Sequence record: KX130865
Length of the DNA: 64,000 nt
DNA from: Shigella phage SHSML-52-1
Direction: 5' to 3' (one strand)
Below are positions 20,681-60,113 of the stretch, one piece after another (within the stretch, counting starts at the first letter, position 1; every line of letters begins with the position of its first letter). The translations under genes were made by a program, and so were the position numbers. Under the pieces are notes generated by a model. The model worked only from the letters and a program-made list of their open reading frames with translations. It had not been told where the DNA came from and searched no databases.

Positions 20681-21265
20681 ATGACTCGTCCAACGAGACA
20701 GATTTTTAACCAAACAAATATAACAAACTTTGTTGTGGATATCCCAGATAGTACACGAACTTCAGGTTTTGTGCTCAATGCCCAAACGGCTCCACTGCCA
20801 GGTGTGAGAATTCCTGTTGTTGAAACTGTGACAGGCACAATGGGGCTAGGTCGTGCAATGCGTGCAGGCACCACATTTGAATATGACCCTTTTGTTGTAC
20901 GATTTATAGTTGATGAAGACATGACGTCCTGGATGAACATGTATAAATGGATGCTCAGCACTAATAACTATATAACCGGGCATAATACGGCCCATGCTGA
21001 TGGTCCTGAGTTTGTTACTTTGCACATTTTAAACAACAATAAGACCGAAGTAGTTTTGACTGCGAATTTCTATAAACCATGGATTTCCGATCTGAGCGAA
21101 ATTGAATTTAGTTACACTGAAGATTCTGACCCTGCCGTTACGTGCGTAGCAACTATTCACTTCGCGTATATGACGATAGAAAAAGACGGCGAAGTCATTG
21201 TATCTCAACAACCACGTCAAGTGGTCGAATCTAAATCCATTTCTAGACACCCTTCTTTGCGTTAA
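20681..21265 (+). CDS. 3: tail completion / tail tube terminator gp3
   Basis: Start set to ATG 20681 (GAGGTG SD) rather than the GTG at 20675; identity from position between genes 2 and 1. Confidence 0.7.
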   Translation: MTRPTRQIFNQTNITNFVVDIPDSTRTSGFVLNAQTAPLPGVRIPVVETVTGTMGLGRAMRAGTTFEYDPFVVRFIVDEDMTSWMNMYKWMLSTNNYITGHNTAHADGPEFVTLHILNNNKTEVVLTANFYKPWISDLSEIEFSYTEDSDPAVTCVATIHFAYMTIEKDGEVIVSQQPRQVVESKSISRHPSLR

Positions 21266-21318
21266 TCGCTTCTAGCTCTGTATGTTATAATCATTCATAA
21301 ATTATATGAGGAAAACCT

Positions 21319-22053
21319 ATGGAGCTAATCTTTTTAAGTGGCATCAAACGTAGTGGTAAAGACACTACTGCTGATTACATCAATTCAAACTTTAAATCCG
21401 TAAAATACCAATTGGCATATCCGATTAAAGACGCTCTAGCAATAGCCTGGGAGCGTAAACATGCTGAAAACCCCGACGTATTCACCGAGTTGAAATACGA
21501 ATACTTTGAAGGCATTGGATACGACCGTGAAACACCATTAAATCTCAATAAGTTGGATGTTATTGAATTATTGGAAGAAGCGATAATTTATTTACAAAGT
21601 CAATATTTACCAATTAATAATGTTAAAGTATTATCATCATTAGAAGGTGGATATTCATATCTAGATATTAAACCATATGAAGCCCTGCGTGAAGCTATAA
21701 ATAATATCAACGACACATGGTCAATCCGCCGTCTTATGCAAGCCCTCGGTACGGATGTTGTCGTTAATTTATTTGATCGTATGTATTGGGTTAAACTTTT
21801 TGCATTAAACTATATGGATTATATTGGAAGTGATTTCGATTACTATGTTGTAACCGATACACGTCAAGTCCATGAAATGGAAACCGCTAGAGCGATGGGT
21901 GCTACAGTTATTCATGTGGTTCGCTCTGGTACGGAATCCACCGATAAACATATTACAGAAGCTGGGTTGCCTATTGAAGAAGGCGATTTAGTTATTACAA
22001 ACGACGGCTCTTTAGAAGAGCTTTATTCTAAAATTGAAACAATCTTAAGGTAA
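21319..22053 (+). CDS. 1: deoxynucleoside monophosphate kinase gp1
   Basis: 244 aa beginning MELIFLSGIKRSGKDTTADYI with P-loop GIKRSGKDT; close to the T4 gp1 sequence I recall. Confidence 0.9.
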   Translation: MELIFLSGIKRSGKDTTADYINSNFKSVKYQLAYPIKDALAIAWERKHAENPDVFTELKYEYFEGIGYDRETPLNLNKLDVIELLEEAIIYLQSQYLPINNVKVLSSLEGGYSYLDIKPYEALREAINNINDTWSIRRLMQALGTDVVVNLFDRMYWVKLFALNYMDYIGSDFDYYVVTDTRQVHEMETARAMGATVIHVVRSGTESTDKHITEAGLPIEEGDLVITNDGSLEELYSKIETILR

Positions 22054-24985: not shown

Positions 24986-25060
24986 GGCCCTGTAGCTCAA
25001 TGGGAGAGCTGTCAGCTCATAACTGATAGGTAGCTGGATCGAAACCAGCCAGGGTCACCA
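24986..25060 (+). tRNA. tRNA, anticodon CAU (Met or lysidine-type Ile; cannot distinguish)
   Basis: Hand-folded cloverleaf: acceptor GGCCCTG/CAGGGTC, D stem GCTC/GAGC, anticodon stem GTCAG/CTGAT with loop CTCATAA, T stem GCTGG/CCAGC, encoded CCA. Confidence 0.8.
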
Positions 25061-25063
25061 ATT

Positions 25064-25140
<77 letters not shown>

Positions 25141-25815: not shown

Positions 25816-25841
25816 GCCCCTTCCGAAAGGTTGGGGCTTTT
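25816..25841 (+). terminator. intrinsic terminator (GCCCC...GGGGC + T-tract), copy 1 of 3
   Basis: AGCCCCTTCCGAAAGGTTGGGGCTTTT: GC stem with GAAA loop then U-tract. Confidence 0.65.
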
Positions 25842-48826: not shown

Positions 48827-49777
48827 ATGACACGTTCACATTACATTGAATACTTTGCCGGTCTTATCGCTAACGTTCATGCTCAGCGCGCTTCTGGTGC
48901 ACTAGGATTTGATGTTCCACACCGAGATGTAGTAAGTGGTATTCTTCGCGATTTTGGTACATACACAGGCCAAGAAAATCATATCTGTAAAGATACTCAG
49001 AATGCATATTCTCATTCATTAGGGACACTGCTTCAATGGTTCAAACGTTCTCGTTTATTATCTTCTACTGTAGCTCGCGATAACATTAAAAACTTTATGA
49101 AACCGAGCTTTATTAAATCTGTGACATCTAAAACCGATTTGGTTGAATTCACTATTGTTAATGATGTTAAAAAGACTCATTTAGCTGATTGGTTATCTAC
49201 CATTCCTGAAACTAAATTTGCTGATAAATTTGCTTGTGAATTCAATAACCAAGTGAATATGCTTTTTAAACATTCTTGTAAATTATTCACGGGCGGTGAT
49301 GGTCGTACAAATAAAGTTCATGTTAAAGATTGGGTTACTGCAGTATTCAAACCAACAGGTAATGGTAACGCATCATTATCAATTGATATCCAGGTTCCTT
49401 ATTACTACTCACGTAATCTCGGTACCATGAAAGCTGAAGAAATTAATAAGCATAACAAAACCGTTCGTTCATTGTCTTATAAACTTATTACATTGTTAGA
49501 GACTATGGATGTTGTTGAAACGTTCGACGAATCCGAAGATAACGGTTCAATGTTATACAGTTCTCGTACCCGAATTAAGCTGAAGAACCCTAATACGTAT
49601 AAACCTAAGCTTATTAAAGAACCTAAAGCAGAAAAGGTTGATATCATGGCTGAAGAACGTGAGTACCTCAAATCTCGTCTGAAAGAAGTCGAAGCCCAGA
49701 TTGCAGAACAAACTAAATCGTTAAAAGCTCTGAATGCGAAAGCGGACGGTTTACGAAATGCCATTGAGGTGTTATAA
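48827..49777 (+). CDS. hypothetical protein with C-terminal coiled coil (316 aa)
   Basis: Downstream of duplicated promoter cassette B. Confidence 0.6.
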   Translation: MTRSHYIEYFAGLIANVHAQRASGALGFDVPHRDVVSGILRDFGTYTGQENHICKDTQNAYSHSLGTLLQWFKRSRLLSSTVARDNIKNFMKPSFIKSVTSKTDLVEFTIVNDVKKTHLADWLSTIPETKFADKFACEFNNQVNMLFKHSCKLFTGGDGRTNKVHVKDWVTAVFKPTGNGNASLSIDIQVPYYYSRNLGTMKAEEINKHNKTVRSLSYKLITLLETMDVVETFDESEDNGSMLYSSRTRIKLKNPNTYKPKLIKEPKAEKVDIMAEEREYLKSRLKEVEAQIAEQTKSLKALNAKADGLRNAIEVL

Positions 49778-51547: not shown

Positions 51548-51718
51548 ATGCAAGTTAAATTATTGTACCGTTTATTAAAAAATGGCAAGCGTGATTGGTA
51601 TTTGCTTATTAAAACCGATCCGAATTTTTTCTCTGGACAACCATTTACAGTTCGTCCTACTAAACGTCAGCTTCGCAAATCTAAACGTTCTCATCGTAAC
51701 TTTTATAACATTTACTAA
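51548..51718 (+). CDS. hypothetical small basic protein (56 aa)
   Basis: ATG 51548 preceded by GGGAAGAG; below the ORF track threshold. Confidence 0.35.
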   Translation: MQVKLLYRLLKNGKRDWYLLIKTDPNFFSGQPFTVRPTKRQLRKSKRSHRNFYNIY

Positions 51719-51720
51719 AT

Positions 51721-51728
51721 TATAAATA
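51721..51728 (+). promoter_or_regulatory. T4-type late promoter TATAAATA (gene 49)
   Basis: Exact TATAAATA 30 nt upstream of the gene 49 ATG; ACCCTTA/TAAGGGT hairpin arms follow. Confidence 0.6.
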
Positions 51729-51757
51729 CCCTTATCTATTTAAGGTAAGGGTTTATC

Positions 51758-52232
51758 ATGTTATTATCAGGCGCAAAATATAAAGAAGAAAAAACAAAAA
51801 TTTTATGATGCACAGAACGGTAAGTGTCCTATTTGCCACCGTGAATTAGACCCTGATGTTCAAGGTAACCATCTTGACCACGACCATGAATTAAACGGGC
51901 CAAAAGCTGGTAAGGTTCGTGGTTTACTATGTAACCTGTGCAATGCAGCAGAAGGTCAAATGAAGCATAAGTTCAACCGTTCTGGTCTTAAAGGTCAAAA
52001 TGTTGATTACCTCGAATGGCTTGAAGCTCTTCTTGCTTATTTGAAACAAGATTATTCTGATAATAATATCCATCCTAATTTTGTTCCAGACAAAACTAAA
52101 GAGTTCTCAAGACTAGGTAAAGAGGAAATGATGACCGAGATGCTTCAAAGAGGATTTGAATATAATGAATCTGATACTAAAACACAATTAATAGCTTCAT
52201 TCAAAAAGCAGCTTAGAAAGAGTTTAAAATGA
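51758..52232 (+). CDS. 49: endonuclease VII (gene 49), interrupted by a frameshift in an A6 run
   Basis: ATG 51758 gives MLLSGAKYKEEKTKIL then TGA at 51806; the other frame continues ...QKFYDAQNGKCPICHRELDPDVQGNHLDHDHELNGPKAGKVRGLLCNLCNAAEG... to 52232, matching T4 gp49; removing one A from 51789-51794 restores a 157-aa ORF. Confidence 0.6.
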
Positions 52233-52766
52233 AAATTGAAAAAGAAATTGAAGGATTAATTCATAAAACTAATAAAGACCTTTTAAACGAGAATGCTAAT
52301 AAAGATTCTCGTGTTTTTCCAACTCAACGGGACCTTATGGCTGGTATTGTGTCTAAGCACATTGCCAAAAATATGGTCCCGTCTTTTATTATGAATGCGC
52401 ATGAAAGTGGAATTATCCACATGCATGATATTGATTATTCTCCTGCTCTTCCGTTTACTAATTGTTGTTTAGTCGATTTAAAGGGGATGCTTGAGAATGG
52501 ATTTAAATTAGGCAATGCTCAAATTGAAACGCCTAAATCTATTGGCGTTGCTACTGCAATTATGGCACAAATTACTGCACAAGTTGCTTCGCATCAATAC
52601 GGCGGAACGACTTTTGCTAATGTAGATAAAGTACTTTCTCCTTATGTTAAACGCACCTATGCAAAACATATTGAGGATGCAGAAAAATGGCAAATCGCTG
52701 ATGCGTTGAATTATGCTCAATCTAAAACAGAAAAAGATGTCTATGACGCATTCCAGGCGTATGAGT
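52229..52766 (+). CDS. nrdD: anaerobic ribonucleotide reductase NrdD, exon 1
   Basis: Begins MKIEKEIEGLIHKTNKDLLNENANKD, near-identical to T4 NrdD; reading frame breaks after ...DAFQAYE. Confidence 0.9.
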
Positions 52767-52977
52767 TAATTTAATTCAGGCTCATGTAAAACCGGTCTAA
52801 ACGGGGAACCTCTCTAGTAGACAATCCCGTGCTAAATGTTCTTTTGAACTAAATGCCTAACGACTAACCGTGATGAATGTAGCGGTGTAGAATAGAAGCT
52901 AATGCTATTCGAAACGGCCGGCATCGAAAGATGAAGATATAGTCTAATCTGCATGGCGACATGCAGCAGTCATCTTG

Positions 52978-52985
52978 TATAAATA
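52978..52985 (+). promoter_or_regulatory. T4-type late promoter TATAAATA upstream of I-TevII
   Basis: Exact TATAAATA 30 nt upstream of the I-TevII ATG, inside the intron. Confidence 0.55.
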
Positions 52986-53014
52986 AGATTATCTTATGAA
53001 TACGAGGTGAAACA

Positions 53015-53785
53015 ATGAAATGGATAAAAAGACGTTGTACTAAAATAAAAGATAAAGACGCATTTACATACTTAGTTAAGTTTTCTAATGGTGACATTTA
53101 TATCGGTTATAAAAAATTTAGAACAATTAAAAACAAGCCCACAAACTGGAAAACTTACACAACGTCATCTAAGTATATAAATGAACGCTTAAAAACTGAT
53201 ACACCTACTAAATGGATAATTTTAAAAACATTTGATAGTTATAAAGATGCATTAAAACATGAAGAAGAGGTCATACGTAAATATTTTTATAGCAAAAAAT
53301 GTTTAAATAAATCCATAGGCGGTAAAAAGTTTTATAAGCATCCGGATACTGAAGAACATATTCAAAAATTAAGAGATGCTCATAAGGGTAAAGTGTTATC
53401 CGAATCTCATAAAAACAGTATAAAATCTTCTGTAGCTGAATATTATGCTAAAAACGGAAGATCTAAGGAACATGTGCAAAATAATATCAATAGTCGAAAA
53501 AGTAAAAAACAAGTATCGATAAAGCTTAAAAATAAAACTTTTAGAAGTTTTAAAAAAGCAGCGGAATATTTAAATTGCACTGAAAGTGAAGTCGAAACTC
53601 ATCCTCTTGTTTTGAGTATTAAGACTACTATTCATAAAGTTCCTGAATATGTGGTTGTTGACGGTATTAAGTATACGTCTTATATAGAAGCAGCTAAAGC
53701 GCTAAATTTTCATCCTAGCACTATAAAAGAACGTTGCATATCTATGGACTATCCAAATTTTGTTGTTTCATATAAACGGGCATGA
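53015..53785 (+). CDS. I-TevII: intron-encoded GIY-YIG homing endonuclease I-TevII
   Basis: 256 aa inside the nrdD intron; N-terminal GDIYIGYKKF...KHEEEVIRKY is GIY-YIG-like; size and position as T4 I-TevII. Confidence 0.85.
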   Translation: MKWIKRRCTKIKDKDAFTYLVKFSNGDIYIGYKKFRTIKNKPTNWKTYTTSSKYINERLKTDTPTKWIILKTFDSYKDALKHEEEVIRKYFYSKKCLNKSIGGKKFYKHPDTEEHIQKLRDAHKGKVLSESHKNSIKSSVAEYYAKNGRSKEHVQNNINSRKSKKQVSIKLKNKTFRSFKKAAEYLNCTESEVETHPLVLSIKTTIHKVPEYVVVDGIKYTSYIEAAKALNFHPSTIKERCISMDYPNFVVSYKRA

Positions 53786-53811
53786 ATTTGCGACTCATGC
53801 TGAATATAATG

Positions 53812-55091
53812 ATGAAGTAAATACACTTTTCAGCTCTAATGGACAAACGCCTTTTGTAACAATTACATTTGGTACAGGAACTGACTGGACTGAACGAATG
53901 ATTCAGAAAGCAATTCTGAAAAATCGTATTAAAGGTCTTGGTCGTGATGGGATAACTCCTATTTTCCCTAAGCTTGTTATGTTCGTTGAAGAAGGTGTTA
54001 ATCTTTATAAAGACGATCCGAACTATGATATTAAACAGCTTGCTTTAGAGTGCGCAAGCAAAAGAATGTATCCTGATATTATTTCAGCTAAGAACAATAA
54101 AGCTATCACCGGTTCATCTGTTCCTGTTTCTCCAATGGGTTGCCGTAGTTTCTTGAGCGTATGGAAAGATTCGACTGGTAATGAAATTCTTGATGGACGT
54201 AATAATCTTGGTGTTGTAACACTGAATCTTCCTCGCATCGCGTTAGATTCTTATATTGGAACACAGTTCAATGAACAGAAATTTGTTGAGCTATTTAATG
54301 AACGAATGGATTTATGTTTTGAAGCTTTGATGTGTAGAATTAGTTCCTTAAAAGGAGTTAAAGCGACTGTTGCTCCTATTCTTTACCAAGAAGGTGCATT
54401 CGGGGTTCGTCTTAAACCTGATGACGACGTAATTGAGTTATTTAAAAACGGTAGAAGTTCAGTGTCTTTAGGATACATTGGTATTCATGAATTGAATATT
54501 CTTGTCGGTCGTGATATTGGACAAGAAATTTTAACTAAAATGAATGCTCATCTTAAACAGTGGACTGAAAGAACTGGATTTGCTTTTAGTTTATATTCTA
54601 CTCCTGCTGAAAACCTTTGTTATCGCTTCTGTAAACTTGATACAGAAAAATATGGAAGTGTAAAAGATGTTACCGATAAAGGCTGGTACACTAACAGTTT
54701 CCATGTTTCAGTAGAAGAAAATATTACTCCATTTGAAAAGATTTCTCGTGAAGCGCCATATCATTTCATTGCGACAGGTGGTCACATTTCTTATGTTGAA
54801 CTTCCAGATATGAAAAACAATTTAAAGGGACTTGAGGCTGTCTGGGATTATGCTGCACAACATTTAGATTATTTTGGTGTTAATATGCCAGTAGATAAAT
54901 GTTTTACATGCGGAAGTACTCATGAAATGACTCCTACTGAAAATGGATTTGTTTGTTCTATTTGTGGAGAAACTGATCCTAAAAAGATGAACACAATAAG
55001 AAGAACGTGCGGTTATTTGGGAAACCCGAACGAACGCGGATTTAATCTCGGTAAAAATAAAGAAATCATGCATAGGGTTAAACACCAATGA
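53812..55091 (+). CDS. nrdD: anaerobic ribonucleotide reductase NrdD, exon 2
   Basis: Continues YEVNTLFSSNGQTPFV... to the Cys-cluster/glycyl-radical C-terminus (CFTCGSTHEMTPTENGFVCSICG...RTCGYLG); exons sum to 605 codons. Confidence 0.9.
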
Positions 55092-56520: not shown

Positions 56521-56605
56521 ATCCCATTTCTAATATAATCTATTGGAATCCTCACTTCACTATCTCCTTGTGCCCCTCTCAAATCAAAAATATTTTCATA
56601 AAACA

Positions 56606-56634
56606 GTTTACATCCTCAATAGTTGTGTTAAGAT
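56606..56634 (+). promoter_or_regulatory. early promoter (-35 GTTTAC, -10 TAAGAT)
   Basis: GTTTAC 56606-56611, 17-nt spacer, TAAGAT 56629-56634. Confidence 0.45.
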
Positions 56635-56662
56635 TAAACCATCTACTATAGAGGAAAATAAA

Positions 56663-56911
56663 ATGATTAGTTTAGATTCAAAGAAAGTTGTTCTAACCCT
56701 TAAAGTTAATGACGAGCGTCCGGTATTCGTTACCATTTCCGATTTGCATGTTGAAATTGCTAATGGTGTTCGTACTTATCAAGCAAATAAAACTCATTGG
56801 GACTATATCCCAATGTTGACGCTTACTCAGCGTTTAGAATCAATCGGTCTTAAAGACCTTTCAGTAAGTGAAGTGAATTTTATCAAACGCATTGTATCAA
56901 TCAACCTCTGA
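56663..56911 (+). CDS. hypothetical protein
   Basis: 82 aa from ATG 56663 (GAGGAAAA SD). Confidence 0.5.
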   Translation: MISLDSKKVVLTLKVNDERPVFVTISDLHVEIANGVRTYQANKTHWDYIPMLTLTQRLESIGLKDLSVSEVNFIKRIVSINL

Positions 56912-60088: not shown

Positions 60089-60113
60089 GAACTCTTCGGA
60101 GTTCCTTTTTTTT
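60088..60113 (+). terminator. intrinsic terminator
   Basis: GGAACTC-TTCG-GAGTTCC followed by eight T. Confidence 0.75.

Follow-up and report, generated by a model that had tools for sequence, protein, structure and literature searches.

Gene 49 of phage SHSML-52-1, the gene for endonuclease VII, stands in the deposited sequence KX130865.1 as a pseudogene form of a T4 gp49 family member, its reading frame being split by one additional A in a short homopolymer. The split frame is really there in the deposited sequence and is no chance pattern, and it is the single unique coding anomaly of an otherwise clean record. The explanation that we consider best, and that we hold to be probable though some way from assured, is that a mistake in the deposited consensus created the extra A and that the phage itself has a run of five A (A5) and a normal enzyme of 157 aa. 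We infer this artefact status of the indel from comparisons with relatives, and the promoter and hairpin mechanism proposed below for the gene is taken from T4. Throughout the text, "the window" refers to the whole stretch of 64,000 nucleotides of SHSML-52-1 that was analysed, and positions are counted from its first letter. Eight proteins distributed over its length are identical to SHSML-52-1 entries (ANN87xxx / YP_0092891xx).

SHSML-52-1 (ATCC PTA-121241) is one of the five phages in ShigActive/ShigaShield, a commercial cocktail with doses of about 1e9 PFU (PMC4745833; PMC5376334), and endonuclease VII mainly serves to resolve DNA branches during packaging (PMC3016281). The extra A matters little as biology, and its value is practical. 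KX130865.1, and probably its RefSeq copy too, should be flagged for curation, as it presents a phage used in a food-safety and therapeutic cocktail without an intact copy of an essential packaging resolvase. Comparisons of gene content or "core genes" among Mosigvirus-type phages that rely on the record would wrongly score gene 49 as absent or truncated.

Reading frame and products of gene 49

Direct reading and translation agree that the ORF that opens with the ATG at 51758-51760 encodes MLLSGAKYKEEKTKIL and stops after 16 codons at the TGA at 51806-51808, as the initial annotation had claimed. The homopolymer in GAAAAAAC was read directly as six A (A6) at 51789-51794. No single uninterrupted frame covers the whole of gp49: the 0 frame ends at 51806, and the remainder lies in the +1 frame, which is open from 51744 to the TGA at 52230-52232 and encodes ...KQKFYDAQNGKCPIC..., as well as ...KQKFYDAQNGKCPICHRELDPDVQGNHLDHDHELNGPK..., through to ...KKQLRKSLK. 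The part of the gene left in this second frame encodes four cysteines that align with Cys23/26/58/61 of T4, the HLDHDH segment and the dimerisation domain, and it carries most, not all, of the Endonuclease_7 domain. The initial annotation had also described this remainder as having no start codon before its first glutamine, and a scan of the +1 frame agrees, finding no ATG, GTG or TTG from 51744 until the ATG at 51960. An alternative +1-frame start for the nuclease domain was ruled out by the same absence. The only near-cognate codons in this frame before 51960 are ATA 51780, ATT 51831 and CTG 51936, and the 20-mers upstream of these three contain no Shine-Dalgarno sequence of the GGAG, GAGG or AAGG type.

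Table 1. Features of the gene 49 locus, in window coordinates
Feature	Position	Strand	Basis
TATAAATA motif, T4-type late promoter consensus, just 5' of gene 49	51721..51728	+	direct reading
10-bp RNA hairpin, arms 51728-51737 / 51743-51752, loop 51738-51742	51728..51752	+	folding
Truncated 5' frame of gene 49, 16 codons MLLSGAKYKEEKTKIL + TGA	51758..51808	+	sequence, translation
A6 run with the extra A; A5 in relatives	51789..51794	+	comparison with relatives
Rest of gene 49, +1 frame, Q13 to K157 + TGA	51795..52232	+	translation, Pfam, T4 alignment
Internal in-frame ORF, 90 aa, MKHKFNRSG..., dimerisation domain only	51960..52232	+	ORF list, Pfam
ATGA overlap, gene 49 stop / nrdD start	52229..52232	+	sequence, ORFs

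The removal of one A restores an ORF of 157 aa, and the claimed colinearity with T4 gp49 was borne out by an alignment over residues 1-157 with T4 endonuclease VII (PDB 1E7D/1EN7, E = 8e-94). In this repaired protein, PF02945 (Endonuclease_7, H-N-H type) covers residues 9-96 (E = 2.9e-20; 72.4 bits against a cut-off of 23.6), and PF09124, the EndoVII dimerisation domain, covers residues 104-157 (E = 9.8e-32). The segments GKCxIC, HLDHDH and LCNLCNAAE are identical in the alignment with 1E7D, and we take the aligned Cys and Asp/His/Asn to be the zinc ligands and catalytic residues of the T4 structure. Translation, Pfam and the T4 alignment thus agree with the identification of the gene as gene 49, encoding endonuclease VII and split by a single added A. 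Like T4 gene 49 (PDB 1E7D/1EN7/2QNC; PF02945 + PF09124), the repaired gene has a length of 157 aa and both domains, with Cys23/26/58/61 and HLDHDH conserved, and its stop overlaps the start of nrdD in an ATGA; unlike in T4 gene 49, codons 11-13 in the window contain A6 in place of A5, and the frame ends after 16 codons.

The repaired protein is 100% identical to gp49 of phiE142, and the coding sequences of the two differ by 7 synonymous and 0 non-synonymous changes, which argues that gene 49 has been under purifying selection up to the present. Against the other relatives, 9-11 synonymous and 2-7 non-synonymous changes were counted.

The regulatory anatomy around the gene is intact as well, including the late-promoter motif, the hairpin, the Shine-Dalgarno sequence and the internal start. 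The TATAAATA motif is identical in the relatives, in which the adjacent flank was compared, and its resemblance to T4 late promoters suggests a late-promoter role. The hairpin folds with -12.9 kcal/mol (z = -3.0; 0 of 200 shuffles equalled it), and its 3' arm contains AAGG/TAAGGG, the Shine-Dalgarno sequence of ATG 51758. The internal start has its own, GAAGG at 51951-51955, four bases 5' of ATG 51960 (upstream 20-mer GCAATGCAGCAGAAGGTCAA). Together, these elements make up a layout for nested products, with the function of each part suggested by T4. T4 gene 49 was reportedly found by Barth, Powell, Trupin and Mosig in 1988 to give two nested proteins. The long early transcripts of the T4 gene are said to hide the first ribosome-binding site, so that only the short protein is made, and its late transcripts are said to begin inside the hairpin and to give the full-length nuclease. 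By analogy, SHSML-52-1 transcripts arriving from upstream would fold the hairpin at 51728-51752 and mask the first ribosome-binding site, leaving the 90-aa product from ATG 51960, and late transcripts, which would start just 3' of TATAAATA and within the 5' arm, could not form the hairpin. Translation of these late transcripts would begin at ATG 51758 and give the full-length nuclease, for the resolution of branched DNA before packaging.

The 90-aa ORF corresponds, on this T4 model, to the nested short gene 49 product. It begins at the residue aligned with Met68 of T4, past the zinc-binding cysteines and the HLDHDH and LCNLCN segments, and its Pfam match is to PF09124 only, without Endonuclease_7. 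Thus, consisting only of the dimerisation domain, it cannot act as a nuclease. The suggestion in the initial annotation that this short product alone might be expressed therefore stands in one respect and falls in another: such expression is mechanically predicted from the deposited sequence, but the product is no replacement for the enzyme, as the nuclease domain is absent. No difference from the nested arrangement of T4 was seen in the regulatory anatomy of the window; unlike in the T4 pair, the frameshift in the deposited record leaves no sizeable gene 49 polypeptide predicted other than the internal product. Apart from its broken frame, the locus is ordinary for the T4 gp49 family in every respect that was tested. 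There is no new kind of system here, only one base, not conserved and confined to one record, in a gene that is very well understood.

The A run in relatives and the quality of the record

The locus has 96-98% DNA identity to RB69-like (Mosigvirus-type) T-even phages, and nine relatives were fetched for comparison: ECCR664, phiE142 (two copies), CCU7, RB69, JK45, a Logan assembly, JM10 and a GenBank contig. Base-by-base inspection found A5 in all nine (10 loci), with near-identical flanks, reading GAAGAAAAACAAAAA. An intact gene 49 of 157 aa is present in eight of the nine, and the exception, ECCR664, has a separate frameshift at the 3' end. The contigs of Logan SRR25448148, JM10 and GCA_019973095.1 belong to different phages and likewise encode an intact gp49 of 157 aa. 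The gp49 genes of phiE142, RB69 and the other Mosigvirus-type phages thus differ from that of the window in having A5 without exception and, apart from ECCR664, an intact ORF.

Wider searches gave the same picture. A 75-base query centred on the A run had no exact match among 132 matching phage records, and the top matches all showed 74/75 identities over a 74-base span, that is, a one-base gap. No copy of the A6 form was found in IMG/VR, JGI metagenome contigs or GTDB genomes with an exact 36-mer and a degenerate 30-mer, the latter of which also covers T4-like sequences; the corresponding A5 patterns matched 1, 6 and 6 loci. The A6 allele is therefore unique among all of the comparators. The collections searched contained no independent assembly of SHSML-52-1, and the proteins unique to this phage were found in the NCBI record only.

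The genome was assembled de novo from MiSeq reads with CLC Genomics Workbench 7.0.2 under default settings, and the report describes neither polishing nor Sanger confirmation (PMC5376334). We surveyed the window for comparable anomalies by blastn against JK45 over 62,230 aligned bases, which revealed about 25 further sites at which the length of the indel is not divisible by 3. Placed on the annotation of JK45, these are intergenic, belong to a pair in the tRNA region, fall at HSP ends at replaced segments or form one compensated pair. The compensated +1/-1 changes, at 49499 and 49505, are 6 nt apart within an ORF (48827-49777, 316 aa) that is intact in the window. Across 23 kb of structural genes, there were no indels relative to JK45 other than multiples of 3, and the A6 run of gene 49 is the only uncompensated coding frameshift in the 64 kb with respect to that phage.

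Homopolymers in general are also well behaved. The window has 56 runs of at least six bases, 54 of which could be aligned to JK45, and only two differ in length, namely the A6 run of gene 49 and an intergenic run of eight T at 60106. Among shorter runs, the five A at 56586 are shared with 23 other phages and the four T at 25838 with 14, in exact matches, so both are real polymorphisms. In the sister phage SHBML-50-1 (KX130864.1), which went through the same pipeline, no split gene was found among those checked in 50 kb, and gene 49 of that phage is intact with 474 nt. The JK45 indel survey, the two differing runs among 54 and the sister genome together rule out an assembly that is generally noisy at homopolymers.

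The frameshift of ECCR664 (OL631257.1) is an observation of its own. This genome has four A, against five in the window and the other relatives (TTCAAAAGCAG versus TTCAAAAAGCAG), at about 2705-2710 of its locus (window equivalent 52204-52208), which shifts the frame near codon 150. Gene 49 is unannotated in this sparsely annotated record of 134 kb. As in the window, a single-base change in an A run breaks the same conserved gene in one record; the change in ECCR664 is a deletion near codon 150 in a sparsely annotated record, while that of the window is an insertion at codon 12 in a clean assembly. The A4 of ECCR664 is probably another homopolymer error in a deposited genome.

Explanations for the extra A

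The uniqueness of A6, combined with the lack of any other decay in the gene, implies that the extra A is either absent from the phage or only a few generations old. The initial annotation had offered a sequencing error and a phase-variable tract, besides the short product discussed above, as explanations and had left them unranked. It is the first that we find best supported. The production of this phage at high titre for a cocktail is hard to reconcile with a loss of branch resolution in packaging, and homopolymer indels do occur in the deposited genomes of relatives, for instance in ECCR664. Two considerations weigh on the other side. Consensus errors at six-base homopolymers are uncommon with Illumina sequencing, which counts against an artefact. 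Furthermore, given the clean homopolymers of the window and the 50 kb of the sister genome, nothing independent points to a pipeline that makes such errors.

For these reasons, we give some weight, though clearly less, to the possibility that A6 is a real and very recent slippage mutation in the stock that was sequenced. It could be present as an A6 sub-population complemented by co-infecting A5 phage in high-multiplicity lysates, or it could be a fixed but leaky mutation, and an A6 genome would then yield the 16-aa peptide, the catalytically dead 90-aa fragment and traces of full-length enzyme. A-runs are classical hot spots for frameshifts in T-even phages through Streisinger-type slippage, and the otherwise accurate homopolymers of the window and of the sister 50 kb lower the prior for an error. 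The absence of other damage to gene 49 is equally compatible with a lesion a few generations old and with an artefact. Against such a mutation stands the conservation of the gene, which is intact in eight of nine relatives, has A5 in all of them and differs from its closest allele by synonymous changes only. Such intactness and synonymous-only change indicate strong purifying selection, under which A5 revertants should outcompete a null. A return from A6 to A5 would likewise be strongly selected, so that a deleterious A6 should not stay the majority allele. SHSML-52-1 is, moreover, propagated industrially, and no second assembly of it exists in the collections to confirm the mutation.

A more demanding version, in which A6 is real and fixed in a commercial phage that still grows, seems to us very unlikely, as either low-level slippage would have to suffice or gp49 would have to be dispensable for packaging. 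Were it so, the amount of resolvase needed for packaging would be far lower than has been assumed, and a stock confirmed to carry A6 would provide a natural test of the minimal requirement for endonuclease VII in a T-even phage.

We regard it as extremely unlikely that A6 is real and that gene 49 is expressed by recoding, with enough full-length endonuclease VII for growth. The frame could be shifted by tRNA-Lys slipping +1 at one of two AAA-A sites, codon 12 (51791) and codon 14 (51797), or by RNA polymerase dropping one A of the A6 run. The local sequence would allow it: two AAA codons are each followed by A, permitting perfect +1 re-pairing before the 0-frame TGA, although such sites are common in AT-rich genes; the 0 and +1 frames overlap over 51744-51806 without a +1-frame stop; and slippage would yield either the wild-type gp49 or one with the change Q13T. 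The frame shift is, however, conserved in no relative (0 of 132 records, none in the three collections, and one frame at the run in 9/9 relatives), and a recoding signal absent from all relatives is not one that has evolved for the purpose. Nor is a stimulator evident, the stop context UUA-UGA bars re-pairing of the prfB kind, and the codons past the slip sites (ACA and AUU) are ordinary. Efficient transcriptional slippage is known at tracts of about nine or more, and six A fall short of that.

The proposal of a phase-variable (contingency) tract, by which endonuclease VII would be turned on and off, found no support and has next to no probability. In its favour is only the position of the lesion, a homopolymer close to the gene's 5' end; against it, the tract is A5 in every relative and metagenomic copy examined, six bases are short for a contingency tract in a genome in which runs of at least seven bases are almost absent (3 in 64 kb), and we know of no benefit of an OFF state for a resolvase essential to packaging.

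Variation around gene 49 and elsewhere in the window

Gene 49 lies directly upstream of nrdD, in the same order as in RB69, phiE142 and JK45. On its upstream side, the relatives are polymorphic for an indel of about 600 bp that adjoins the gene and corresponds to the presence or absence of pin, the Lon protease inhibitor. In RB69 (locus 1503-2262), ECCR664 and JK45, pin and a small ORF are found 5' of gene 49, whereas the window (51548-51757), like phiE142 and CCU7, has no pin between an ORF of 56 aa (51548-51718) and gene 49.

On the downstream side, an insertion of 1045 nt (52767-53811) separates exon 1 of nrdD (52229-52766) from exon 2 (53812-55091); the boundaries of the insertion were set by alignment to an intron-less nrdD. 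The insertion contains an ORF (53015-53785) for a GIY-YIG-type homing endonuclease of 256 aa that is annotated as I-TevII in JK45; in Pfam, it has a weak match to SegE_GIY-YIG and a faint one to NUMOD1. No group I intron was called in the insertion by Rfam at the gathering threshold. An uninterrupted nrdD of 605 aa occurs in RB69, phiE142 and a Logan assembly, so that the window differs from RB69 and phiE142 in having an intron in this gene.

Further from gene 49, two overlapping blastn HSPs between the window at 56586-56690 and the JK45 locus at 21250-21416 skip a segment of about 150 nt of JK45, which is apparently absent or replaced in the window and holds the 60-aa "55.6 gene product". Two tRNA genes, for Met (CAT) and Arg (TCT), are located at 24986-25140, and the D-loop region of tRNA-Met shows small indels with respect to JK45.

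The window contains 295 homopolymers of at least five bases and 56 of at least six, compared with only 3 of at least seven bases in the 64 kb, a scarcity that fits selection against slippage-prone tracts in an AT-rich genome. The intergenic run of eight T at 60106-60113 is the only one of at least eight bases. It corresponds to six T in JK45 and apparently to nine in phages SF and phi25-307, and it looks hypervariable. With the gene 47 homologue on one side and a small upstream ORF on the other, it may be part of a terminator or promoter region.
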